64,000 nucleotides of DNA from an uncultured Rhodobacterales bacterium (lineage in GTDB: Bacteria; Pseudomonadota; Alphaproteobacteria; Rhodobacterales; Rhodobacteraceae): the NCBI GenBank assembly GCA_903873585.1, contig CAIQOV010000007.1, positions 1,779 through 65,778 of the forward strand. The letters run 5' to 3'. Every line of letters begins with the position of its first letter. The first letter of the stretch is position 1. Made by a program: the position numbers and the translations under genes. This document shows positions 27,467 through 64,000 of the stretch, piece after piece. Under the pieces are notes generated by a model. That model saw nothing but the letters and a program-made list of their open reading frames with translations, searched no databases and was not told where the DNA came from.

Positions 27467-29119
27467 ATGGCACAAGACATCGCGCGCGAAGAGATGGAGT
27501 ATGACGTGGTCATCGTGGGGGCCGGTCCCTCTGGCCTGTCGGCGGCGATCCGGTTGAAGCAACTGGATGCCAACCTGTCGGTTGTGGTGCTTGAAAAAGG
27601 GTCCGAAGTGGGGGCACATATCCTGTCGGGCGCAGTGCTGGACCCGTCGGGCCTTGATGCTTTGCTGCCCGATTGGCGCACCATGGGCGCGCCGATCAAG
27701 ACCGAAGTGACAGAGGATAACTTCTACATCCTTGGGCCAGCCGGTCAAATGCGCATCCCGAACTGGCCCATGCCGCCCTTGATGAACAACCACGGCAATT
27801 ACATCGTCTCGATGGCCAATGTCTGCCGCTGGCTGGCGCAACAGGCCGAAGCCTTGGGGGTCGAGATTTTCCCCGGCATGTCGTGTTCTGAACTGGTGTA
27901 CGGTGCAAGCGGCGAAGTGCGCGGCGTGGTGGCGGGCGAGTTTGGCAAGAACGCCGATGGCACCCCGGGATCGTCCTATGAACCGGGAATGGTGCTGGCG
28001 GGCAAGTATGTCTTCCTGTCAGAAGGCGTGCGCGGCAGCTTGGCCAAGGAAGTTATCGCCAAATACGATCTTTCCGCTGGCAAATCGCCGCAGAAGTTTG
28101 GCCTTGGCATGAAAGAGATCTGGCAGATTGACCCCGCCAAGCACCACGAAGGCCGTGTGACCCACACGATGGGTTGGCCCTTGGGGTCGAATGCGGGCGG
28201 TGGGTCGTTTATCTACCACCTTGAAAACAATCAGGTCTATGTGGGCTTCGTGGTGCACCTGAACTACGAAAACCCGCATCTTTATCCGTACATGGAATTC
28301 CAGCGCTTCAAGCATCACCCGATGGTGGCTGACTTGCTAAAGGGCGGCAAACGGGTGGCTTACGGCGCGCGCGCGATTTCCGAAGGCGGTTGGCAGTCGA
28401 TCCCCAAGATGGTTGCCCCCGGTGTCGCGCTATTGGGTTGCACCGCAGGCTTGGTCAACGTGCCGCGCATCAAGGGCAACCACAACGCCATGCTGTCGGG
28501 CAAAGCGGCGGCAGAGGCGGCCTTTGCCGCGATCAGCGCGGGTCGCAGGGGCGATGAGCTTTCCGCCTACGAGGCCGATGTGCGCGGTGGGGCCATTGGG
28601 CGCGATCTGAAAAAGGTGCGCAATGTCAAACCCTTGTGGTCGAACTATGGGCTTGTTGCCTCACTTATGGGGGGCGGTTTGGATATGTGGCTGAACACCT
28701 TTGGCCTGACCGCCTTTGGCACGCTAAAGCACCGCAAGACCGATGCTGCCGCCACGGGCCTTGCGACCAAGTTCAAGCCGATCGACTACCCCAAGCCTGA
28801 CGGCGTGCTGTCATTCGACCGGCTGACCAACATTTCCTTTTCCGCCACCAACCACGATCCTGACCAACCCGCCCACCTAAAGCTGCGCGATGCGTCGGTG
28901 CCGATTGCGGTGAACCTGCGCGATTATGACGAACCCGCGCAGCGCTATTGTCCGGCAGGGGTGTACGAGGTGGTCAGGGAAGACGGCAAAGACCCGCGCT
29001 TTCAGATCAACTTCCAAAACTGCGTGCATTGCAAAACCTGCGATATCAAAGACCCCAGCCAGAACATCACATGGACCACGCCGCAGGGCGGGGGCGGGCC
29101 GAACTATCCCAACATGTAA
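27467..29119 (+). CDS. Electron transfer flavoprotein-ubiquinone oxidoreductase
   Basis: VGAGPSGLSAA, EKGSEVGAHILSGA, RYCPAGVYE, NCVHCKTCDIKDP, GGGPNYPNM. Confidence 0.96.
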   Translation: MAQDIAREEMEYDVVIVGAGPSGLSAAIRLKQLDANLSVVVLEKGSEVGAHILSGAVLDPSGLDALLPDWRTMGAPIKTEVTEDNFYILGPAGQMRIPNWPMPPLMNNHGNYIVSMANVCRWLAQQAEALGVEIFPGMSCSELVYGASGEVRGVVAGEFGKNADGTPGSSYEPGMVLAGKYVFLSEGVRGSLAKEVIAKYDLSAGKSPQKFGLGMKEIWQIDPAKHHEGRVTHTMGWPLGSNAGGGSFIYHLENNQVYVGFVVHLNYENPHLYPYMEFQRFKHHPMVADLLKGGKRVAYGARAISEGGWQSIPKMVAPGVALLGCTAGLVNVPRIKGNHNAMLSGKAAAEAAFAAISAGRRGDELSAYEADVRGGAIGRDLKKVRNVKPLWSNYGLVASLMGGGLDMWLNTFGLTAFGTLKHRKTDAAATGLATKFKPIDYPKPDGVLSFDRLTNISFSATNHDPDQPAHLKLRDASVPIAVNLRDYDEPAQRYCPAGVYEVVREDGKDPRFQINFQNCVHCKTCDIKDPSQNITWTTPQGGGGPNYPNM

Positions 29120-53834: not shown

Positions 53835-54761
53835 ATGTCGAAAATCATCATCTCTTGCGCTATCACAGGCTCTATCCATGTGCCCAGCCAATCGCCCTAT
53901 CTGCCGGTAACGGCGGCGCAGATTGCGGCATCTGCCATAGGTGCGGCGCAAGCGGGGGCCGCGATCTTGCACCTGCACGCACGCCACCCCGACACGGGCC
54001 GCCCCTCGGCTGACCCTGAACATTGGGCGGGGTTTTTGCCCGCGATCAAGGCGGGCACCGATGCCGTGGTGAACATGACCACCGGCGGATCGGCTGTGAT
54101 GACGCTGGACCAGCGCCTAGCCGCCCCCAAGGCCAACGCGCCCGAGATGTGCAGCCTGAACATGGGGTCGATGAACTTTGCCCTTTACCCGATGATTGAC
54201 CGGATTGCCCAGTTCAAGCACGACTGGGAAAAGCCCTTCTTAGAAAACTCTGACGATCTGGTGTTCAAAAACACACCCCGCGACATTGCCCATGTCTTGG
54301 CCGAAATGGGCCAAGCGCGCGGCGCAAGGTTCGAGTTTGAGTGTTATGACATCAGCCATCTGACGATGCTAAAGCATTTCGTCGATCGTGGCCTGATCCA
54401 ATGCCCGCTGTTCTTGCAGTTCGTCTTTGGTGTGTTGGGCGGAATGCCAGCGGAACCTGAGATTCTGACCCTGCTCAAACGCACCGCCGACCGGATGTTT
54501 GGCGACGGCTACCAGTTTTCCGTCCTCGCCGCAGGTCGTGCGCAGATGCCCATGGCGACGATGGCTGCGGCGATGGGCGGCCATGTTCGGGTTGGGCTAG
54601 AGGATAACTTGTACATCTCAAAGGGTGTGCTGGCCGAGTCGAACGCGCAACAGGTGGAATTGATCACCCAAATTGTCACCCGCCTAGGGCGCACCATCGC
54701 CACCCCCGATGAGGCGCGCGCGATGCTGGGCCTGAAAGGCCGCGACAAGGTGGCCTTTTGA
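53835..54761 (+). CDS. Beta-keto acid cleavage enzyme (BKACE/DUF849, Kce family)
   Basis: IISCAITGSIH, AGAAILHLHAR, CSLNMGSMNF, FEFECYD, GHVRVGLED. Confidence 0.92.
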   Translation: MSKIIISCAITGSIHVPSQSPYLPVTAAQIAASAIGAAQAGAAILHLHARHPDTGRPSADPEHWAGFLPAIKAGTDAVVNMTTGGSAVMTLDQRLAAPKANAPEMCSLNMGSMNFALYPMIDRIAQFKHDWEKPFLENSDDLVFKNTPRDIAHVLAEMGQARGARFEFECYDISHLTMLKHFVDRGLIQCPLFLQFVFGVLGGMPAEPEILTLLKRTADRMFGDGYQFSVLAAGRAQMPMATMAAAMGGHVRVGLEDNLYISKGVLAESNAQQVELITQIVTRLGRTIATPDEARAMLGLKGRDKVAF

Positions 54762-55252
54762 GCGACGCAATCTGCCCCAACGCAATCCGCACCGTCACCC
54801 CCGCCGATGTGCCCCGCCTGCGCGCACTGTTGCAGGCCCTATCAGACGAAGACGGCGGCACCTACCAAGTGGGGTCTCAAGCCGCCCTATCCCGCGCGCT
54901 TTTCGCCCCCGCCCCCCTGATCTTCGCCCTAATCGCCGACCAAGGCATGGCCTTTTACTACCCCGATTTCTCAACCCATCGAGGAGAGGCGGGGGTTTAC
55001 ATCCAAGACCTCTACGTCACCCCCCAAGCGCGCGGCACGGGCCTCGCCCGCGCTTTGCTGGCCGCTGTGATGCACCACCAAGCCTGGGGCGCGCGGTTCA
55101 TGACGCTGGGTGTCAGCCCCGAAAACATCGCCGCCACAAGGTTTTACGCCAAAACAGGCTTTACCCCGCGCGGCTACGCTATGATGATCCTTGACGGCTT
55201 ATCCCTGAAAGAACTGGCCCCGAAAGACTTGGCCCCGAAAGACTTGGCATGA
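54758..55252 (+). CDS. GNAT acetyltransferase, spermidine/spermine N1-acetyltransferase-like (TTG start)
   Basis: FYYPDFSTHRGEAGVYIQDLYVTPQARGTGLARALL, NIAATRFY. Confidence 0.82.
   Translation: MSDAICPNAIRTVTPADVPRLRALLQALSDEDGGTYQVGSQAALSRALFAPAPLIFALIADQGMAFYYPDFSTHRGEAGVYIQDLYVTPQARGTGLARALLAAVMHHQAWGARFMTLGVSPENIAATRFYAKTGFTPRGYAMMILDGLSLKELAPKDLAPKDLA
55215..55248 (+). repeat. In-frame 15-bp tandem repeat at the 3' end of the GNAT gene
   Basis: TGGCCCCGAAAGACT x2 plus TGGC, encoding ...ELAPKDLAPKDLA. Confidence 0.9.
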
Positions 55253-56265
55253 TCACCTTCTATAACCCCGACCAACGTGCGCATGACCCCAAGTTCTTCC
55301 TGTCGTCGGGCGCGCCTATGGCGTGCCCCGAACAGCCCACCCGCATCGACGCCCTGTTGGCAGGTGTGGCCACCCTTGGGCTGCAAGTGCAAACCCCCGC
55401 CGACCAAGGCATAGGCCCGATCGCCGCCATCCACCCGCAGCGCTATCTGACGTTTTTGCAAACGATCCACGCCCGCTGGCAACATATTCCGGGCGCAAGT
55501 TCCGAGGTGATCCCCAACATCCACCCCGCCAACCGCACCGATGGCTACCCGCTGTCCGCCGTAGGACAGGCGGGCTTTCATATGACTGACACCTCCTGCC
55601 CGATCAGCGAGCAAACGTGGGGGGCGGCCTATGCCTCGGCCCAAACCGCCATCGCGGGCAGCGAGGCTGTCTTGCAAGGCGCGCGCTCTGCCTATGCGCT
55701 TTGCCGCCCGCCGGGCCATCATGCCTTTGGCGAACTGGCCGGCGGGTTTTGCTATCTGAACAACACCGCGATTGCCGCACAGCAACTGGTCCTGTCGGGT
55801 CGCAAAGTGGCGATCTTGGATGTCGACCTGCACCATGGCAACGGCACCCAAGGCATCTTTTACGACCGCCCCGATGTGCTGACGGTATCAATTCACGCCC
55901 ACCCCGAACGCTACTATCCCTTCTTCTGGGGCTATCCGGATGAGCGCGGCAGCGGCGCGGGCGAAGGTGCCAACCTCAACCTCTGCCTACCCCGTGGCAG
56001 CGCTGATGCCGCCTTCTTGGCCGAACTTGACCGCGCCTTGCACGCCATCACCCTGTGGGGCGCGGATACGCTGGTTCTGGCCCTTGGCCTTGATGCGTTT
56101 GAAGGCGATCCCTTCGCGGGCCTTGCCGTCACCACCCAAGGCTTTGCCCAAATAGGCCAACAAATCGCGGCCCTCAACCTGCCCACCCTGATCGTGCAAG
56201 AAGGCGGCTATCTGTGCCCAGAATTGGGCCAAAACCTGTCAGCCGTCCTAAATGCCTTCCTCTAA
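55249..56265 (+). CDS. Histone deacetylase-family protein, acetylpolyamine amidohydrolase-like
   Basis: PEQPTR, PNIHP, DTSCPI, CRPPGHHA, DVDLHHGNGTQ, GLDAFEGDP, QEGGY. Confidence 0.9.
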   Translation: MITFYNPDQRAHDPKFFLSSGAPMACPEQPTRIDALLAGVATLGLQVQTPADQGIGPIAAIHPQRYLTFLQTIHARWQHIPGASSEVIPNIHPANRTDGYPLSAVGQAGFHMTDTSCPISEQTWGAAYASAQTAIAGSEAVLQGARSAYALCRPPGHHAFGELAGGFCYLNNTAIAAQQLVLSGRKVAILDVDLHHGNGTQGIFYDRPDVLTVSIHAHPERYYPFFWGYPDERGSGAGEGANLNLCLPRGSADAAFLAELDRALHAITLWGADTLVLALGLDAFEGDPFAGLAVTTQGFAQIGQQIAALNLPTLIVQEGGYLCPELGQNLSAVLNAFL

Positions 56266-56269
56266 TCCC

Positions 56270-56314
56270 TTTCATACGTGCCCAAATATCCCGGGGTCCG
56301 GGGCAGCGCCCCGG
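56270..56314 (+). repeat. Short copy of the REP-like family seen at 6923-7143
   Basis: TTTCATACGTGCCCAAATATCCCGGGGT-CCGGGGC-AGC-GCCCCGG. Confidence 0.6.
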
Positions 56315-56362
56315 CTTTGCCAACTCTGCCTTTTCCAGCCCCAAACCCCAGAAAGATAACAC

Positions 56363-57229
56363 TTGCGCACCTCAACCCCCTTAAAGGGCATCGCCCTGAT
56401 GCTGGCCGCCATGGCGATTTTGCCCGGCATTGATGTCTTGGCCAAGTTCTTGGGCCAAGAGGGTGTGCCCGTGATGCAAATCGTCTGGGCGCGGTTGACC
56501 TTTGGGGCGCTGCTGACCTTGCCCTTCGCCGCCCGCCACACCGGTGTGCGCGGCCTGATGCCAGATCAACCCGGCATTCACACCTTGCGCGCCAGCCTGT
56601 TGATGGCCGCCACTTTCTTTTTCTTCTGTGCGCTCAAATACCTGCCCATTGCCGATGCGCTGGCGATTTTCTTTGTTCAGCCGCTCGTGGTAACAGCCCT
56701 TTCGCCGCTGATCTTGAAAGAAACCGTAGGCCCCCGCCGCTGGGCCGCCGTTTGCGTGGGCTTTATCGGCACGCTGATCATCATCCGCCCCGGCATCACC
56801 GCGATCAATCCCGGCAGCCTGTTTGCCTTGGCCGCAGGCACCAGCCTTGCGCTGTATTTCCTGCTGACACGGCGCATATCGGGCCGCGCCAAGGCCATTG
56901 TCACCACGTTTCACACCAACGCCTTGGGCTGCTTGCTTGCCTCGGTTCTCGTCACCTTTGTCTGGCAAACCCCCACGCTGTCGCAATGGGGCCAGTTCCT
57001 AGCGCTCGCCGCCATCGCCAACGTCGGCCATTATTGCATCGTGCGCGCCTATGACCATGCCGAGGCATCGCTCCTCGCCCCGCTGGCCTATACCGAGATG
57101 GTCACCTCAACCCTCATGGGCCTGATCTTCTTTGGCGATTTTCCCGACCGCTGGACATTCCTAGGCGTGGCCATCTTGATCGCCTGCGCCATCTACATCT
57201 CAACCCGCAGCCACAAGACCCAAACCTAA
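56363..57229 (+). CDS. DMT/EamA-family transporter
   Basis: About 10 TM helices; LKYLPIADA, ETVGPRRWAAV, AYDHAEASLLAPLAY, FGDFPD. Confidence 0.87.
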   Translation: MRTSTPLKGIALMLAAMAILPGIDVLAKFLGQEGVPVMQIVWARLTFGALLTLPFAARHTGVRGLMPDQPGIHTLRASLLMAATFFFFCALKYLPIADALAIFFVQPLVVTALSPLILKETVGPRRWAAVCVGFIGTLIIIRPGITAINPGSLFALAAGTSLALYFLLTRRISGRAKAIVTTFHTNALGCLLASVLVTFVWQTPTLSQWGQFLALAAIANVGHYCIVRAYDHAEASLLAPLAYTEMVTSTLMGLIFFGDFPDRWTFLGVAILIACAIYISTRSHKTQT

Positions 57230-57242
57230 CGCCCCCCGTGTC

Positions 57243-59459
57243 TCACGGGCGGCTTGGGCTGTCCGATAAGCGGATCTCAACAGGCCCCGCCGTCACCCGC
57301 CCAATCAGGGCCGCGCTGACATCTCCCGCTGCGTGCAATTGCGCGGTCAAACCTTCCGCCTGATCCCACGGCACCGACGCCAGCAAACCGCCACAAGTTT
57401 GCGGATCAAACAACAAAGCCCCCCGCGCGCTGGCCAACCCTGCGCCACGTATCCGCCCCAAAAGGGCGGCGCGGTTGGCGGGGGCGAGGTAAGAGTGTTC
57501 GCCCAAATCCGCCAAAGCCTCTGCCCCCATCATCAGCGGCACAGCGTCCAACCAAAGCTGCGCCCCCGTGGCCGAGGCGTCCATCATCTCCATCACATGC
57601 CCCGCCAAGCCAAAGCCTGTCACGTCCGTCATCGCATGGGCGGGGGGGGCGAGAATGGCAGAGGCTGGCCCCAAAGGACGGCGCATTTGGGCAAAACACG
57701 CGGCCACCACCTCGCCCAGCATCAGGGGGGGCACCTGCGCCATGGCCATCTCTGCCGCAAGGATCGTTCCTGATCCCAGCGCTTTGGTCAGAATAAGCGC
57801 ATCGCCCACCTGCGCCCCCGCTTTCGTTAGCGCGCGGCTTGCAAGCCCTGTTACGGTGAACCCCAGCGTCAGTTCCGCCCCTTGGCTGGTATGCCCGCCC
57901 ACCACATCGGCCCCGGCCTTGGCAAAGACGGCAGAGGCTGCGCCCATCACCTCGGCCAAGGTGCGGGCCTGTAAGGTGGGCGACAGGCGCGGCAGGATCA
58001 CTTGGGCCAAAGCCACTTGCGGCTGTGCCCCCATCGCCCAGATGTCACCCAAGGCATGAACCGCTGTCAGTTCAGCCATCAGGCGCGGGTCGCAGGTGAA
58101 GCTGCGCAGATGGTCGGTGGTCAGCACCTGCACACCGTGATCGGTGCGCAAAATCGCGGCATCATCGCCCGCACCCGCCACCACCTCGGCCCGTTGCGGC
58201 GGGGGCAGGGCCTGCATCATGGCCGCAAGCCCCGCCGACCCCACCTTGGCTCCGCAGCCACCGCACAGCGGCTTGTCGCCCAAAGCGTCAGCCAGCCCCA
58301 CAACGGCGGGTAAGGGCAGCGCGGGCGCGGGCATCGCGGGATAATCAGCGAACTTCGCCATAAAACGGCGGTCGATGCGGTCTTTCATCCGCCACAGCCA
58401 AGCCCCCCCGCTGCGCAGGCCCCATTTGTCGGCCAAGGCCGAGCGGTCACCTAGCGAGATCAGCTTGAGATAATCGCGCTGCGGTTGGAAGCTTTGCAAC
58501 GCATCGCCTGTCAGCGCGGCGCGCAGGTTGGCCAAAAGCACAGGGGCTGCGCGCACGGCATAGACACCGGCCTTAGGGCGCGGCGCGTGGGTTAGGTGGG
58601 CGCAATCGCCTGCGGCAAAGATCATTGGGTCAGACGAGCGCAGATGCGCGTCGACTGCCACAAAACCGTCGGTTAGCGTCAGCCCCGTGCTTTGCACCCA
58701 AGCCTGCGGGCGTGCGCCTGCGACTGTCAGCGTGAAATCCGATGCAATCCTTCGCCCGTCAGACAAAACCACCGCCCCCGCCTCGGCCCGCATCGGGCTT
58801 AGGTTGGACAACACCTCGACCTGATAGGCCTTTAGCGCCGCCATCAGCCCCGCACGGCTGGCGGGGGCCATCTGTGCCAAAAGCTGCGCGCCACGGTCAA
58901 CCAGCGTGACATGCGGCGCGGCCCCCATCGACCGCAACCGATGGGCTGATGCCAGTGCCAGTTCCACCCCGCCAATGCCGCCGCCAATCACCACCACCCG
59001 CGGTGCAGGCAAAGCGCGGGCCACAAACGCCTCCCATGCGCGGGCGTAATCGCCCAAGGGCTTGGCCGAGCGGGTAAAGTCGCCAAACCCCGCAAGGTCG
59101 GGCAAGTCAGAGGTGATGCCGATGTCAATACTTGCCAGATCATAGGGCAGGGGGGGGCGGCTTTGCAGGATCACGGTTTGGGCATCGCGGTCGATGCCAA
59201 TGGCGCGGTCTAATATCAACCGCGCACCGGCAAAGCGGGCCAGTCGCACAAGGTCGATCATTATGTCAGCGCGCTGGTAATGCCCCGCGATCAGGCCGGG
59301 TAACATGCCGGTATAGGGGGCCACCGGATCGGGGTTGATCAGTGTCAGCCGCACGCCGGCCAAGGGCTTCATTGCCCACATCCGCGCCACCAACGCATGG
59401 GTGTGCCCGCCGCCAATTAGCACAAGGTCGCGTATCTGGGGCAGGTTTGGGTCTTGCAT
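57243..59459 (-). CDS. selD: Selenide, water dikinase with an N-terminal FAD/NAD(P)-dependent oxidoreductase domain
   Basis: N-terminal GGGHTH, YTGMLPG, GGGIGGVE, FAAGDC, KAGVYAVR; C-terminal LCGGCGAKV, GDDAA, TTDHL, GGHT, TDVTGFGLAGH, FDPQTCGGLL. Confidence 0.9.
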   Translation of the reverse strand: MQDPNLPQIRDLVLIGGGHTHALVARMWAMKPLAGVRLTLINPDPVAPYTGMLPGLIAGHYQRADIMIDLVRLARFAGARLILDRAIGIDRDAQTVILQSRPPLPYDLASIDIGITSDLPDLAGFGDFTRSAKPLGDYARAWEAFVARALPAPRVVVIGGGIGGVELALASAHRLRSMGAAPHVTLVDRGAQLLAQMAPASRAGLMAALKAYQVEVLSNLSPMRAEAGAVVLSDGRRIASDFTLTVAGARPQAWVQSTGLTLTDGFVAVDAHLRSSDPMIFAAGDCAHLTHAPRPKAGVYAVRAAPVLLANLRAALTGDALQSFQPQRDYLKLISLGDRSALADKWGLRSGGAWLWRMKDRIDRRFMAKFADYPAMPAPALPLPAVVGLADALGDKPLCGGCGAKVGSAGLAAMMQALPPPQRAEVVAGAGDDAAILRTDHGVQVLTTDHLRSFTCDPRLMAELTAVHALGDIWAMGAQPQVALAQVILPRLSPTLQARTLAEVMGAASAVFAKAGADVVGGHTSQGAELTLGFTVTGLASRALTKAGAQVGDALILTKALGSGTILAAEMAMAQVPPLMLGEVVAACFAQMRRPLGPASAILAPPAHAMTDVTGFGLAGHVMEMMDASATGAQLWLDAVPLMMGAEALADLGEHSYLAPANRAALLGRIRGAGLASARGALLFDPQTCGGLLASVPWDQAEGLTAQLHAAGDVSAALIGRVTAGPVEIRLSDSPSRP

Positions 59460-59603
59460 CGGGGTTTGATCCTTGGGCTGGGCCACCCTACCGCGCGGCG
59501 CTGCCACATGAAAGCGGGCGATGGCGGCGCGGGCTTGCTTGACAGACCTGCGCTTTTGCTGAACATTTGTATAGCAGGCACATGGCCCGCGACAGGAGAC
59601 CCG

Positions 59604-61625
59604 ATGGATCCCGCCCACGCCATTTTGTTAGAGCCGGTCAAGATCGGCCCCGTCACGGCCCCGAACCGCTTTTACCAAACCCCGCACGCCACCGGCTTTG
59701 GTTGGCAAAGGCCGCAAGCCTCTGCCGCGTTGCGCGGGGTGAAGGCGGAAGGTGGCTGGGGGGTGGTGTGTACCGAGTACTGCTCGATCCATCCCACGTC
59801 GGATGATAGCCCTTCGGCCTATCTGACGCTGTGGGGCGAAGAAGATGTTGCCCCCTTGGCGGCCACGGCGGATGCCATCCATGCCCACGGCGCGCTGGCG
59901 GGGGTGGAACTGTGGCACGGCGGGGCCCATGCGTCTAACCGCATGACTCGACTGCCCACGATTGCCCCGCAAAGCCAACCGGCGCTGTATCACCTGCCCA
60001 CGGCAGCGTGCGCGATGGATCTGTCTGACATTCGCGAATTTCGCCAATGGCAGCGCGCGGCCGCCCTGCGGGCTAAGCGGGCGGGGTTTGACATTGTCTA
60101 TGTCTACGCCGGCCACGATTACCTGCCCTTCCAATTCCTATCCCGCCGCACCAACCAGCGCAGCGATGCTTACGGCGGATCGTTGGAAAACCGTGTGCGC
60201 TTGCTGCGCGAGATGATCGAGGAAACCAAAGAGGCCGTGGGCGACACCTGTGCTGTCGCCCTGCGCATGGCGGTGGATGAATTGCACGGCCCCCTTGGCA
60301 TCACCGCCGAAGGCGAGGGCCGCGACATCGTCGCCATGCTGGCCGACCTGCCCGACCTGTGGGATGTGAACTTGGCGGGCGCTTTGGGCAATGACAGCAA
60401 ATCGGCGCGCTTCTCGCCTGAAGGGTATCAGGAAGACTATATCCGCTTTGTCAAAGGGCTGACGGGCAAGCCTGTGGTGTCGGTGGGGCGGTTCACCTCT
60501 CCGGACAGGATGGTCGCGCAGATCAAGCGCGGGGTGCAAGATTTCATCGGCGCGGCGCGCCCCTCGATTGCCGACCCCTTCCTGCCAGCCAAGATCCGCG
60601 AAGGGCGGGCGGATGAAATCCGTGAATGCATCGGCTGCAACATTTGCCGCGCGGCCAATAACGAAGGCGTCAGCCTGCGCTGCACCCAGAACCCGACGAT
60701 GGGGGAAGAATGGCGCAAGGGCTGGCATCCTGAACGCATAGCGCCCCATGCGCCCGATAAGGTGCTGGTGGTGGGCGCCGGCCCTGCGGGGCTTGAAGCG
60801 GCGCTGAGTTTGGGGCGGCGCGGGCTGAACGTGTCGGTGGCCTTTGCCGAACGCCAAGCGGGGGGCCGGATCAACCGCGAAAGCACCTTGCCGGGGCTGG
60901 CCACATGGGGCCGTGTGCGCGATTGGCGGCTGACGATGCTGGCCAAGCTGCCCAACGTGACGCTGTATCCTGAAAGCGCCATGACGGCTGACGATGTGGC
61001 GGGCTTTGGCGCGGATCATGTCGTGCTGGCCACGGGGTCGGTCTGGCGGCGTGACGGGGTGGGCGTGCTGGGCATGACGCCGCGCGCCTTTGCGGGGGCT
61101 TTGACGCCGGATGATATCTTTGCAGGGGCCAAGGTAAGCGGCCCCGTGGTGATCTATGATGACGAGCATTATTTCATGGCAGGGGCCTTGGCCGAACGGC
61201 TGGCGGGGCAGGGCCATGACGTCACCTATGTGACGCCGCAAAACATGGCCTCGGCTTGGACGGTGTATACTGACGAACAGGGCTTTGTGCAGGCACGGTT
61301 GATCGAAGCGGGGGTGAAGCTGCAAGTGGCGCGCTATGTCACGGGCTGGGCCGATGGCGCGGTGGTGGCAGAATGTGCTTACACAGGTCGCGCCTTGCCC
61401 GCCGTGCCCTGCGGCACGCTTATCTTGGCGACAGGCCGTGTGCCGGTGGATGGGCTGTATCAAACGCTTGTCGGGCGCGTGGCGTCGTTGGCGCGGGTGG
61501 GCGATTGTTTGATGCCCTCGTCAATGGCCGATGCGATCTATTCCGCCCATGCCTATGCCCGCGAGCTTGGCGCGGCCCCCCAGCCCCTGCGCCGCGAACT
61601 GCCGCCCCACCGTGCTGCGCTATGA
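59604..61625 (+). CDS. Trimethylamine/histamine dehydrogenase-family Fe-S flavoenzyme
   Basis: NRFYQTPH, KAEGGW, TEYCSI, GFDIVYVY, YGGSLENR, ARPSIADPFLP, CIGCNIC-X11-C [4Fe-4S], GEEWRKGWHPE; RBS AGGAGA. Confidence 0.9.
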   Translation: MDPAHAILLEPVKIGPVTAPNRFYQTPHATGFGWQRPQASAALRGVKAEGGWGVVCTEYCSIHPTSDDSPSAYLTLWGEEDVAPLAATADAIHAHGALAGVELWHGGAHASNRMTRLPTIAPQSQPALYHLPTAACAMDLSDIREFRQWQRAAALRAKRAGFDIVYVYAGHDYLPFQFLSRRTNQRSDAYGGSLENRVRLLREMIEETKEAVGDTCAVALRMAVDELHGPLGITAEGEGRDIVAMLADLPDLWDVNLAGALGNDSKSARFSPEGYQEDYIRFVKGLTGKPVVSVGRFTSPDRMVAQIKRGVQDFIGAARPSIADPFLPAKIREGRADEIRECIGCNICRAANNEGVSLRCTQNPTMGEEWRKGWHPERIAPHAPDKVLVVGAGPAGLEAALSLGRRGLNVSVAFAERQAGGRINRESTLPGLATWGRVRDWRLTMLAKLPNVTLYPESAMTADDVAGFGADHVVLATGSVWRRDGVGVLGMTPRAFAGALTPDDIFAGAKVSGPVVIYDDEHYFMAGALAERLAGQGHDVTYVTPQNMASAWTVYTDEQGFVQARLIEAGVKLQVARYVTGWADGAVVAECAYTGRALPAVPCGTLILATGRVPVDGLYQTLVGRVASLARVGDCLMPSSMADAIYSAHAYARELGAAPQPLRRELPPHRAAL

Positions 61626-63112
61626 GACGACCACGCTCTACCGCCACACCCCAGCGCCCCTTTGGCCAGGTGCCGCTGGGAATTGCGCCGGTTGAGGTGA
61701 TCTCGACCGATCAGGTCGAAGCCATTCACGGGGCTGCGTTAAAACTGCTGGCGGGCACGGGGATCAAGGTTCTGCACCCCCCCGCCCGCGCGCTGTTTCA
61801 GGCGGCGGGGGCGGTGGTGGCGGATGAGATGGTTCGCCTTGACCCCGATCTGGTGATGGACCTGATGTCTAGCGTTCCGCCAACCTTCACCCTCGCCGCC
61901 CGCAACCCCGCTAAATCCTTGCGCTTCGGCGGGAGGGATATGGTCTTCACCTCGGTCGGCGGGCCTGCCTATGTGATGGATATCGACGGCGGGCGGCGCG
62001 ATGGTACCTTTGCCGAACTGTGCGAGTTTCTAAAGCTGATCCAAGGCATCAACGTGATCCACCAAGAAGGTGGTGGCCCGTTTGAACCGATGGACCTGCC
62101 CGCCGCCACGCGACATCTGGATATGTATCTGGCGCAGATCACCTATCTGGACAAAAGCTGGCAAACCCAAACCCTTGGCCATGCCCGCACGATGGATGGG
62201 ATCGAGATGGCCGCGATCATGTTCGGCTGTGCGCCTGAAGCTTTGCCGCTTAGCTTGCTTGGCATCATCAACACCAACTCACCCCTGCAACTCGATGTGC
62301 CCATGGCCGAAGGGCTGATTGCCATGGCCACCCACGGGCAGGTCAACGTCATCACGCCCTTCACGCTGGCAGGGGCCATGGCGCCTGTGTCCATCGCCGG
62401 TGCGCTGGTGCTCCAACACGCCGAGGCGATGGCGGGCATTTGCCTGACCCAGATCGTGAAAAAGGGTGTGCCGGTGATGTATGGCGGCTTCACCTCAAAC
62501 GTAGATATGCGCTCGGGCGCGCCGGCGTTTGGCACGCCGGAATATGCCAAGGCGGCGCAAGCCTCGGGCCAATTGGCGCGGCGGATCGGGGTGCCGTTTC
62601 GATCTAGCAATGTCACATCGGCCAATGCGGTCGATGCGCAGGCGGCTTATGAAAGCCAGATGGCGCTGTGGGGGGCGATCACCGGCGGTGCACACCTGAT
62701 CGAACACGCCGCAGGCTGGATGCACGGCGGGCTGACGGCCAGCTATGAAAAGCTGATATTGGATGCCGAGATGCTGCAAATGATGCAGGCTTGGATGGAA
62801 CCCATGGCCACCGATGACGCCGCCTTGGGGCTAGACGCGATTGCCGAGGCTGGCCCCGGTGGCCATTTTTTCGGTACGGCGCAAACCATGGGCAGTTATC
62901 AGACGGCCTTTCACCAACCCATGCTGTCAAACTGGGACAATTACCCCAACTGGCTGGAAAAAGGGTCCGAAGAAGCGCCGCGCCGCGCCAACCGGATCTG
63001 GAAAGAGGTGATCGCCGCCTATGATGAACCCAAGCTGGACGCAGGCACAGCCGAAGCATTGGCCGATTATGTTGCGCAGCGCAAAGCCGAGGGTGGGGCA
63101 CCGATGAACTAA
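61622..63112 (+). CDS. Trimethylamine methyltransferase (MttB) superfamily protein, non-pyrrolysine
   Basis: IINTNSPLQLD, TPFTLAGAMAPV, YGGFTSNVDMRSGAPAFGTPE, HAAGWMHGGL, GPGGHFFG; ATGA overlap with the upstream gene. Confidence 0.92.
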   Translation: MRRPRSTATPQRPFGQVPLGIAPVEVISTDQVEAIHGAALKLLAGTGIKVLHPPARALFQAAGAVVADEMVRLDPDLVMDLMSSVPPTFTLAARNPAKSLRFGGRDMVFTSVGGPAYVMDIDGGRRDGTFAELCEFLKLIQGINVIHQEGGGPFEPMDLPAATRHLDMYLAQITYLDKSWQTQTLGHARTMDGIEMAAIMFGCAPEALPLSLLGIINTNSPLQLDVPMAEGLIAMATHGQVNVITPFTLAGAMAPVSIAGALVLQHAEAMAGICLTQIVKKGVPVMYGGFTSNVDMRSGAPAFGTPEYAKAAQASGQLARRIGVPFRSSNVTSANAVDAQAAYESQMALWGAITGGAHLIEHAAGWMHGGLTASYEKLILDAEMLQMMQAWMEPMATDDAALGLDAIAEAGPGGHFFGTAQTMGSYQTAFHQPMLSNWDNYPNWLEKGSEEAPRRANRIWKEVIAAYDEPKLDAGTAEALADYVAQRKAEGGAPMN

Positions 63113-63125
63113 GGCGATGACGCGC

Positions 63126-64000
63126 TTATCCGCCCCAAGTGCGGCCCAAAAGCGCCAACCAGTTGTCGCAGCACAGTTTCTTCACCAGAGCCTCGCCATA
63201 TTGATGGTCCAGCATGGCTTGCTGCAAGGCGGGCAGGCCGGCCACATCGCCGATGCCTTGGGGGATGGTTGCGCCGTCAAAGTCAGACCCAAGGCCGACA
63301 TTGTCTTCGCCCAAGTGGGTGATCAGGTGGTCAAGGTGCGACAGCACATCCTCCCACCCCATATCCGCCGATTGCTTGCCATCGCGGCGCAGGAAAGAGG
63401 TGGCGAAGTTTAGGCCCACCATGCCGTTGGATGCCTTGACCACCGCCAGTTGCCGGTCGGTCAGGTTGCGGCTGGATTGGGTGATGGCATGGGCGTTGGA
63501 ATGCGTGGCGACCAAGGGCGCGGTCGAAAGGGCCGCGACATCGTCAAAGCCCTTTTCGGTCATGTGGCTTAGATCGAGCATGATTTTTAGCTCGTTACAG
63601 GCCACCACCAAGCGCTTGCCCGCATCGGTCAACCCGCCGCCGGTGTCGGGCGACGAGGGGTAGGCAAAGGGCACGCCGTGGCCAAAGATCGTGGGGCGCG
63701 ACCAGACGGGGCCAAGCGAGCGCAGGCCCATCGCGTGAAAGCCGTAGAGCGCATCCAGATCGGGGCCAATCGCCTCGGCCCCTTCCATATGCAGGATGCC
63801 CGAAATCACGCCTGCCGCCATATTGGCGCGAATCTCGGCCACGGAACGCACGATTTTGAACTTGCCCTGCGAGGCGCGCTCCATCCACAGCATATGGTTC
63901 GCCATGGCCCAAGCCGTGGGCAAAGCGCCTTCGGCAGAAATCAGCGCGGGCAGGGGCAGGCGGTAGGGCGGGTTTTCCATCAACTGGTGATAGTCGATGC
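63126..64000 (-). CDS. Membrane dipeptidase (peptidase M19) family; 5' end lies beyond the window
   Basis: HMEGAE, GPVWSR, DLSHM, ATHSNA, SRNLTD, GLGSDFDG; frame open to the window edge. Confidence 0.9.
   Translation of the reverse strand, partial: IDYHQLMENPPYRLPLPALISAEGALPTAWAMANHMLWMERASQGKFKIVRSVAEIRANMAAGVISGILHMEGAEAIGPDLDALYGFHAMGLRSLGPVWSRPTIFGHGVPFAYPSSPDTGGGLTDAGKRLVVACNELKIMLDLSHMTEKGFDDVAALSTAPLVATHSNAHAITQSSRNLTDRQLAVVKASNGMVGLNFATSFLRRDGKQSADMGWEDVLSHLDHLITHLGEDNVGLGSDFDGATIPQGIGDVAGLPALQQAMLDHQYGEALVKKLCCDNWLALLGRTWGG

Follow-up and report, generated by a model that had tools for sequence, protein, structure and literature searches.

The 64,000-nucleotide stretch of an uncultured freshwater Rhodobacterales bacterium analysed here (contig CAIQOV010000007.1; hereafter the window) carries two overlapping genes on its forward strand, one for a flavoenzyme of the trimethylamine dehydrogenase (TMADH) family (P0001) and one for a methyltransferase of the MttB superfamily (P0002). 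We found that the association between the two is specific in both directions, far beyond chance, and that a single MttB orthogroup is paired with two distinct flavoenzyme subfamilies that have been exchanged repeatedly. The latter is the new observation: literature searches, including searches for MttB paired with TMADH, histamine dehydrogenase, StcD or DgcA, found no paper on this orthogroup, on the pairing or on the partner exchange. We consider it probable that the two genes are an operon whose enzymes act one after the other in breaking down a carboxylate-bearing quaternary amine, a betaine; MttB would demethylate the substrate via the corrinoid protein MtgC and the flavoenzyme would then oxidise the product.

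The flavoenzyme gene occupies positions 59604-61625 of the window (+) and encodes 673 amino acids, in which an Oxidored_FMN barrel (Pfam, E 5.5e-67) is followed by Pyr_redox_2 and OYE-like_second_a-b domains. The MttB gene (61622-63112, +, 496 amino acids) gives a match to PF06253 (MTTB) at 610.6 bits that covers profile positions 17-500 of 500. As read from the sequence, the two genes overlap in an ATGA at 61622-61625 (+), the TGA stop of the first (61623-61625) sharing bases with the ATG of the second (61622-61624), which indicates translational coupling; a Shine-Dalgarno AGGAG of the flavoenzyme gene is likewise readable at 59594-59598 (+), about 5-6 nt ahead of its ATG at 59604. An alternative, longer in-frame open reading frame for the MttB gene starts at 61373, and we preferred the short form because the orthologs begin at the overlapping ATG or GTG and the Pfam match opens at residue 10. 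The frame is uninterrupted from 61622 to 63112, with no in-frame amber (pyrrolysine) codon, and against the pyrrolysine-type equivalog TIGR02369, which has a cut-off of 525 bits, P0002 scored 264. In NCBIfam neither protein rose above a curated cut-off, and the source names of 120 close homologs were generic only (“FAD-dependent oxidoreductase”, “dimethylamine/trimethylamine dehydrogenase”). What a preliminary description of this DNA had observed, a two-gene unit with an ATGA overlap, was borne out in every detail.

A scan for orthologs of P0002, taking one genome per species, yielded 80 loci with MttB proteins 66-97% identical to P0002; most carriers are Paracoccaceae from freshwater or soil, and a small number belong to the Roseobacteraceae, Aestuariivirgaceae and Parvibaculaceae. 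A flavoenzyme homolog lies upstream on the same strand in 76 of the 80, within 200 nt in 74 of these pairs and beyond a 1.55-kb insert in the other two, while of the remaining four loci two have no upstream DNA and two (L074 and L075) are truly without a flavoenzyme. Where both ends could be scored, the 4-bp overlap (ATGA or GTGA) is preserved in 37 of 45 pairs. The converse test was a metagenome scan with the flavoenzyme gene, in which contigs with the pocket signature of the window's type (class 1, see below) were counted only if they had at least 1 kb of downstream DNA: MttB is the next gene in 12 of 12 such contigs. Three more distant variants of similar signature, which contain the flavin-linking cysteine, have MttB within 0.2-1.1 kb, and MttB is downstream in none of about 60 family members at 53-57% identity whose signature is histamine-dehydrogenase-like or of another kind. 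The preliminary description took the two proteins to work as a unit on one N-methylated substrate, and was prepared to drop this if the pairing proved not to be conserved; the two-way conservation of the pairing and the translational coupling now support it. Some loci show variant arrangements. In L006 and L007, the 1.55-kb insert holds a truncated fragment of a LysR-type regulator and separates an otherwise overlapping pair. A more distant unit at L095 (4992-9563), whose flavoenzyme has the flavin-linking cysteine, carries a 270-amino acid alpha/beta hydrolase gene between flavoenzyme and MttB and a divergent TetR gene upstream. No corrinoid gene was found in the insert of L006 and L007 or in the intervening gene of L095.

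The flavoenzyme partners fall into two classes. Class 1, to which the window's enzyme belongs, comprises 31 loci with proteins 73-97% identical to P0001 and the signature Ala-Tyr-...-His171-Leu261-Asn352, and class 2 comprises 45 loci with proteins 47-51% identical to P0001 and the signature Ala-Ala-...-Met171-Trp352 (Ala59, Met171, Trp352). Each class forms a clade with 100% support, their mutual distance on the tree being as large as that to the histamine dehydrogenases and to PDB 6l6j, and both lack the cysteine of the covalent flavin link. In the MttB tree, by comparison, the partners of class-1 and class-2 enzymes interleave, and well-supported branches force at least seven partner changes. 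Moreover, the MttB gene of L074 stands without a flavoenzyme among DAO+GcvT and sarcosine-oxidase-like genes, and in L075 the flavoenzyme has been lost from between a hydrolase and MttB. Because of these exchanges and these two loci, we conclude that MttB is the constant element of the unit and the oxidase is replaceable. The exchange fits a coupling via a shared metabolite better than it fits a co-evolved protein interface, and it neatly illustrates how one gene of an operon can be replaced by a non-orthologous one.

The nearest structures to P0002 are PDB 4yyc (E 1.9e-100) and D. hafniense MtgB (2qne/9yce, E 1e-89). The genome has five MttB paralogs, and in the tree 64 orthologs of P0002 form a clade with 98/99 support, apart from the four other paralogs of the genome; the identity is 36-43% to the paralogs on contigs C36 and C46, which look the most MtgB-like here, and 37% to D. 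hafniense MtgB itself. In the glycine betaine site of MtgB, Tyr97 and Phe356 make cation-pi contacts while Arg312 and His348 hold the carboxylate, and Arg312, unlike the aromatic pair, is conserved in all characterised quaternary-amine members (PMC13080624). P0002 retains the equivalents of Arg312 (VPF[R]SSN) and His348 (LIE[H]AAG) and has glycine at both aromatic positions. Judged by these four residues, its substrate is probably a quaternary amine with an acidic group and probably not glycine betaine. Glycine betaine seems improbable because Tyr97 is missing, a residue that the C36 and C46 paralogs, as well as PDB 4yyc, keep. Trimethylamine was rejected as a substrate, the MttB protein being without pyrrolysine and the flavoenzyme without two of the three residues of the aromatic bowl. 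Among known systems, MtgB of the anaerobe D. hafniense and MtpB, MtcB, MtyB and MthB of Eubacterium limosum are, like P0002, non-pyrrolysine TIM-barrel methyltransferases with an Arg312 equivalent, and P0002 also keeps His348; in the four E. limosum enzymes, as in P0002, the MtgB aromatic pair is not conserved (PMC13080624). Unlike these enzymes of anaerobes, P0002 belongs to an aerobic host, has no adjacent corrinoid protein or activase, and is encoded by a gene coupled translationally to that of a flavoprotein dehydrogenase. The most divergent of the MttB paralogs of the genome, on C41 (G000:C41:16113-25132, locus L164), is without equivalents of Arg312 and His348. It lies directly after two DAO+GcvT genes of the dimethylglycine dehydrogenase type and before an aldehyde dehydrogenase gene, forming a second unit of MttB plus oxidative demethylase in this genome.

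The flavoenzyme P0001 matches the structures of histamine dehydrogenase (3k30, E 1e-194; 6de6, 8e-189), 6l6j (2.7e-187) and TMADH (1.5e-158), and is about 50% identical to its closest solved relatives, the histamine dehydrogenases. It shares the three-domain FMN/[4Fe-4S]/ADP-type architecture of TMADH (Methylophilus W3A1; 2tmd, 1djn) and of the histamine dehydrogenases of Nocardioides simplex (3k30) and Rhizobium (6de6). Its Cys342, Cys345, Cys348 and Cys360 align with the [4Fe-4S] ligands Cys345/348/351/364 of TMADH and are invariant in 60 partners, and it keeps Arg221 (TMADH Arg222) and the triad Tyr168-His171-Asp264 (TMADH Tyr169-His172-Asp267); Tyr173 also belongs to the mapped residues. 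The place of Cys30, which forms the 6-S-cysteinyl FMN, is taken by Ala29, and alanine stands there in every class-1 partner and in nearly every class-2 partner, serine occurring in one, while family members not paired with MttB mostly have the cysteine. The aromatic bowl Tyr60/Trp264/Trp355 of TMADH becomes Tyr59/Leu261/Asn352 in P0001, with one of three residues kept. The substrate pocket of histamine dehydrogenase (3k30) consists of Gln65, Glu79, Trp267 and Asp358, and these correspond to Tyr59, Tyr73, Leu261 and Asn352. In summary, its residues mark P0001 as a catalytically equipped member of the TMADH family of FMN/[4Fe-4S] enzymes with a pocket of its own. Unlike TMADH and histamine dehydrogenase, it lacks the flavin-linking cysteine, the TMADH bowl and the histamine dehydrogenase pocket, and classes 1 and 2 are clades on the tree apart from the histamine dehydrogenases, 6l6j and TMADH. 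An identity as histamine dehydrogenase was rejected on the pocket residues and the tree position. The preliminary assignment to the TMADH/dimethylamine dehydrogenase/histamine dehydrogenase type agrees with the Oxidored_FMN and two Rossmann-type domains and the four cluster cysteines. The genome also has an electron transfer flavoprotein (ETF) and an ETF-quinone oxidoreductase (ETF-QO), with ETF alpha/beta on C54 and ETF-QO in the window at about 28802-29107 (G000:C7:30580-30885), and these would be the likely electron sink of the flavoenzyme.

Among its relatives, PDB 6l6j (‘Oxidored_FMN domain-containing protein’, 672 amino acids) has, like P0001, an alanine at the Cys30 position and is the best match of the class-2 partners (3.8e-178), but on the tree it groups with the histamine dehydrogenases and not with class 1 or class 2. 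As a lead only, it may be an N-methylamine dehydrogenase of a nicotine pathway; literature searches on 6L6J and 4YYC found nothing relevant. The pathway logic proposed here, and the comparison is of logic only, has parallels in DgcA, the dimethylglycine demethylase of Pseudomonas, and StcD, the N-methylproline demethylase of Sinorhizobium, both TMADH-like enzymes that act after the first betaine demethylation: a betaine loses one methyl group, and an Oxidored_FMN/Fe-S flavoenzyme then oxidises the tertiary or secondary N-methyl amine left over. In those systems the first step is catalysed by a Rieske oxygenase, not by MttB. More distant family members in the present genome (about 28% identical, on C23, C39 and C3) could be the DgcA/StcD-like ones. 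A true histamine-dehydrogenase-like gene, with the Cys, Gln, Glu, Asp signature, is found at G000:C49:120448-122514 next to an amidohydrolase-like gene, and its orthologs stand just downstream of the pair in L071 (10551-12650, -) and L072 (8562-10661, -). We also considered the flavoenzyme as a reductive activase of cobalamin and set this aside, as a RamA homolog exists in the genome and TMADH-type centres are not known to be of low potential.

The genome consists of 55 contigs and is 95% complete, and the contig of the pair is 78.6 kb long. Profile searches with PF02310, PF02607, PF00809 and PF14574 revealed no corrinoid, RamA-type or pterin-binding gene on this contig, all matches lying on other contigs, and between 53.8 kb and contig position 78.6 kb the surrounding genes belong to unrelated families; the preliminary description was therefore right that no gene for a corrinoid protein, activator or methyl-tetrahydrofolate transferase stands beside the pair. 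Elsewhere the genome encodes exactly one small corrinoid protein with cap and Rossmann domains, an MtgC-like protein of 232 amino acids (C14:50189-50887; B12-binding_2 + B12-binding), which is adjoined by a DUF1638 gene and has a gene for an MtgE-like homocysteine S-methyltransferase 1.4 kb away. An MtgD-like Pterin_bind methyltransferase is encoded on C2, beside an open reading frame that has no Pfam match and is taken as MetF-like from its position only, and a RACo/RamA-like protein of 726 amino acids on C28. The other B12-binding matches are open frames of 734, 770 and 279 amino acids, and no classical MetH-sized protein was found among the B12-binding matches of the genome. Beyond this genome, 21 of 22 other pair-bearing genomes contain a cap-domain corrinoid protein, mostly as an open frame of 233-283 amino acids, and where it shares one chromosome with the pair the distance between them is hundreds of kb.

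An unlinked corrinoid protein has a precedent in this order. In Ruegeria pomeroyi MtgC and MtgD, whose genes are unlinked, are indispensable for making methionine, and knockouts showed that the aerobic demethylation of glycine betaine, assigned to pfam06253 MtgB proteins, needs them too; RamA and DUF1638 are co-induced in that organism, and up to seven pfam06253 paralogs per genome have been proposed to share one corrinoid protein (PMC12478193). The MtgB/MtgC/MtgD(E) system of R. pomeroyi DSS-3 and Phaeobacter inhibens (Mausz et al. 2025, PMC12478193) resembles the present one in several ways. A pfam06253 enzyme is found in an aerobic member of the Rhodobacterales with several MttB paralogs; in R. 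pomeroyi, as here, the genes for the corrinoid protein, DUF1638, the pterin-binding methyltransferase, RamA and the homocysteine methyltransferase lie apart from that for MttB; and an oxidative demethylase for the steps that follow is often encoded next to MttB. It differs in that P0002 represents a separate orthogroup without Tyr97, that the adjacent oxidase here is of the TMADH family and not a DAO+GcvT dimethylglycine dehydrogenase, and that a peptide-type importer and a hydrolase accompany the pair. Two statements of the preliminary description do not survive these comparisons. Its remark that little is known of what MttB proteins do in aerobic Rhodobacterales is out of date given PMC12478193. 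Its suggestion that MttB serves the oxidase as a partner, either by binding or independently of a corrinoid, is not supported in view of the unlinked MtgC/DUF1638/MtgE/MtgD/RamA-like set, the corrinoid-cap proteins of the other carriers and the layout shown genetically in R. pomeroyi; the corrinoid partner elsewhere, which it had named as the finding that would refute it, is present at the genomic level on C14, C2 and C28. The unlinked set argues against any need for a corrinoid-free mechanism, rather than proving the use of MtgC, and makes corrinoid independence appear unlikely.

From the gene structure, family memberships, conserved residues, pairing and unlinked corrinoid set we infer an order of steps, the use of MtgC, an electron route and a class of substrate, as follows. 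MttB would bind the betaine, its conserved Arg and His holding the carboxylate, and would pass one N-methyl group to the Co(I) of the shared corrinoid protein MtgC, encoded on another contig; the MtgD-like pterin-binding methyltransferase would pass the methyl group on from MtgC to tetrahydrofolate, and the RamA and DUF1638 proteins would re-reduce oxidised cobalamin. The tertiary amine so produced has a lone pair that the quaternary substrate lacks, and could in a second step be oxidised by the TMADH-family flavoenzyme. Hydrolysis of the iminium would give formaldehyde and a secondary amine, or an aldehyde and a methylamine, and the electrons would travel from FMN through the [4Fe-4S] cluster to ETF and ETF-QO. 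The ATGA overlap would keep MttB and flavoenzyme in step. Uptake of the substrate in most relatives would apparently be through a peptide-type (family-5) ABC importer, and the substrate may be imported as a peptide- or ester-like conjugate to be freed by a CocE/NonD hydrolase, or by the M19 dipeptidase in the window's clade, under a BetI-type repressor.

In favour of this betaine pathway, the C41 paralog, paired with two DAO+GcvT oxidative demethylases, offers a parallel in the same genome, and the regulator of the cluster is of the BetI type (TetR_C_6). Several points weigh against it. Neither protein matches a characterised specificity, and peptide-type importers are unusual for betaines. 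One of the 22 other pair-bearing genomes, a metagenome-assembled genome, showed no corrinoid-cap protein, and corrinoid genes are adjacent to the pair in none of 160 loci, so that the use of MtgC rests on co-occurrence, a test of low power in the Rhodobacterales, where MtgC is also a methionine synthase subunit. Tight translational coupling and exclusive pairing would fit a physical complex as well, and the nearest solved relatives of the flavoenzyme, the histamine dehydrogenases, deaminate a primary amine, so another nitrogen or a non-methyl C-N bond may be attacked.

These points lead to the other explanations of the pair. That the adjacency has no functional meaning, two unrelated genes of amine metabolism being neighbours by chance, is hardly credible: flanking genes do vary between clades, and the region mixes genes for the catabolism of amines and peptides, but against these changing flanks the pairing persists in both directions across Paracoccaceae, Roseobacteraceae, Aestuariivirgaceae and Parvibaculaceae, and the 4-bp overlap persists with it. 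A more serious contender, though still rather unlikely in our judgement, keeps the pathway and changes the bond. Here the substrate would hold a quaternary ammonium together with a second amine or a longer N-alkyl arm, for instance a trimethylated amino acid from a peptide, and after demethylation by MttB the flavoenzyme would oxidise another C-N bond, by deamination or with release of di- or monomethylamine. The closeness of P0001 to histamine dehydrogenases, the reduction of the trimethylamine bowl to Tyr59 (Trp264 becoming Leu, Trp355 becoming Asn), the peptide-type importers and peptidase-family hydrolases among the conserved neighbours, and the Rieske oxygenase, GS-like and aminotransferase genes nearby are all consistent with such chemistry. 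However, P0001 lacks the histamine-binding Gln65, Glu79 and Asp358, there is no sign that the substrate contains a second amine, and the class-2 pocket differs again (Ala59, Met171, Trp352), which means that no single chemistry is readable from the sites.

The remaining explanation dispenses with the corrinoid: MttB and the flavoenzyme would assemble in fixed stoichiometry, MttB being the subunit that binds the substrate or handles the methyl group, and the whole would be a purely aerobic, B12-independent demethylase. It could draw on the 160 loci in which no corrinoid, RamA or pterin-binding gene stands beside the pair, on the conserved ATGA/GTGA overlap, which is often seen with subunits of equimolar complexes, on a pairing exclusive to flavoenzymes of a particular pocket signature, and on the loss of the covalent FMN cysteine in both flavoenzyme classes, by which the flavin site differs somehow from that of stand-alone relatives. 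We nevertheless regard it as improbable. The genome has a full unlinked MtgC/DUF1638/MtgD/RamA set and 21 of the 22 others have a corrinoid-cap protein, in a layout that is the demonstrated norm in aerobic Rhodobacterales (PMC12478193). Partnership of one MttB orthogroup with two distant flavoenzyme subfamilies through at least seven exchanges is hard to square with a co-evolved interface, and the orthologs in L074 and L075 do without any flavoenzyme. Finally, a quaternary nitrogen offers no lone pair for oxidation of the TMADH type, and a methyl acceptor would therefore still be required. Slightly less credence still is due to a specific version of this explanation, in which the complex of MttB with a Cys-less flavoenzyme demethylates a quaternary amine by having MttB position the substrate or give the methyl group to a non-cobalamin acceptor, ATGA coupling and the lost flavin link being adaptations to this.

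To find recurrent neighbours of the pair, all predicted proteins of the 80 loci were clustered. Permeases and ATPases of family-5 (Dpp/Opp-type) ABC importers occur in 42-50 of the 80 loci, a CocE/NonD (S15) hydrolase of 680 amino acids in 41, and a TetR protein with a BetI-type C-terminal domain (TetR_C_6) in 20. In the window's clade the S15 hydrolase is replaced by an M19 dipeptidase, found in 16-19 of the 80 loci. In the window itself this is the convergent M19 membrane-dipeptidase gene at 63126-64000 (-; Peptidase_M19, E 8e-88), which continues past the window edge and, on the contig, heads a Dpp-type ABC operon (SBP_bac_5) followed by a proline iminopeptidase gene (Abhydrolase_1). It is a possible partner in the pathway, its membership being uncertain. 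The CocE/NonD-ABC cluster of this genome lies on another contig (C53:31819-39171). We tentatively suggest that the operon defines a new substrate class of the MttB superfamily, a betaine that enters as a peptide- or ester-linked conjugate via the family-5 ABC importer and is freed by the CocE/NonD or M19 hydrolase; this is possible rather than probable, and likelier than the corrinoid-free complex.

Upstream of the flavoenzyme gene, a putative promoter/operator region (59539-59577, +) includes TTGACA at 59539-59544 and, as a candidate operator, the imperfect palindrome TTGCTGAACATTTGTATAGCAG at 59556-59577, which has TTGAAC-type, BetI-like half-sites with two mismatches in nine per arm. Scans of the DNA upstream of the flavoenzyme gene found no match to a strict sigma-70 consensus and no near-perfect inverted repeat (at most one mismatch). 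At the same position orthologous loci have TTGTTGAACA-NN-TGTCCAACA or TATAC-N5-TTCAACAA. In a loose genome scan a similar candidate site, TTGTTGAACCATCATGCAATAA, was found at C53:39157-39178, lying over the start of the CocE/NonD hydrolase gene, which is unlinked to the pair, and in orthologous loci clearer palindromes are present at both the flavoenzyme and the CocE/NonD hydrolase positions. These matches suggest that one BetI-like repressor may serve two unlinked units, an arrangement that, resting on loose matches, is not established.

Aerobic bacteria carry many MttB paralogs without an assigned substrate, and the 2025 work on Ruegeria assigned glycine betaine only. The pair described here marks a well-defined orthogroup, and its substrate could be sought through the oxidase dedicated to it, through a family-5 binding protein and a hydrolase, and through a BetI-type repressor whose candidate operator can be recognised. 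The pair occurs in cultivable freshwater Paracoccaceae such as Cypionkella, Rhodobacter, Tabrizicola and Frigidibacter. Once the substrate is identified, the B12-dependent turnover of carbon and nitrogen in lakes would gain a methylated-nitrogen compound, and the role of a TMADH-family enzyme without a covalent flavin link would also become apparent.

Further features surround the pair. Upstream, at 53835-57229 of the window, a BKACE-GNAT-deacetylase operon with an EamA transporter travels with the pair in 10-16 of the 80 loci (the window's clade and a few others) and may be functionally linked or merely syntenic. The divergent gene at 57243-59459 (-) encodes a 738-amino acid fusion of a pyridine-nucleotide-disulfide oxidoreductase with AIR-synthase-type (SelD-like) domains, and it adjoins the pair in the closest relatives only. 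On the far side, beyond the Dpp operon and the proline iminopeptidase gene, lie genes for a Rieske oxygenase, a GS-like enzyme and an aminotransferase. In L012 (596-7069), MttB is followed on the same strand by an M19 dipeptidase, a Rieske oxygenase, a small protein and a GS-like gene, and in comparison with that locus the Dpp ABC operon and the proline iminopeptidase intervene between the corresponding genes of this genome (G000:C7:74162-78626). The region looks like a rearranging amine-catabolic island.

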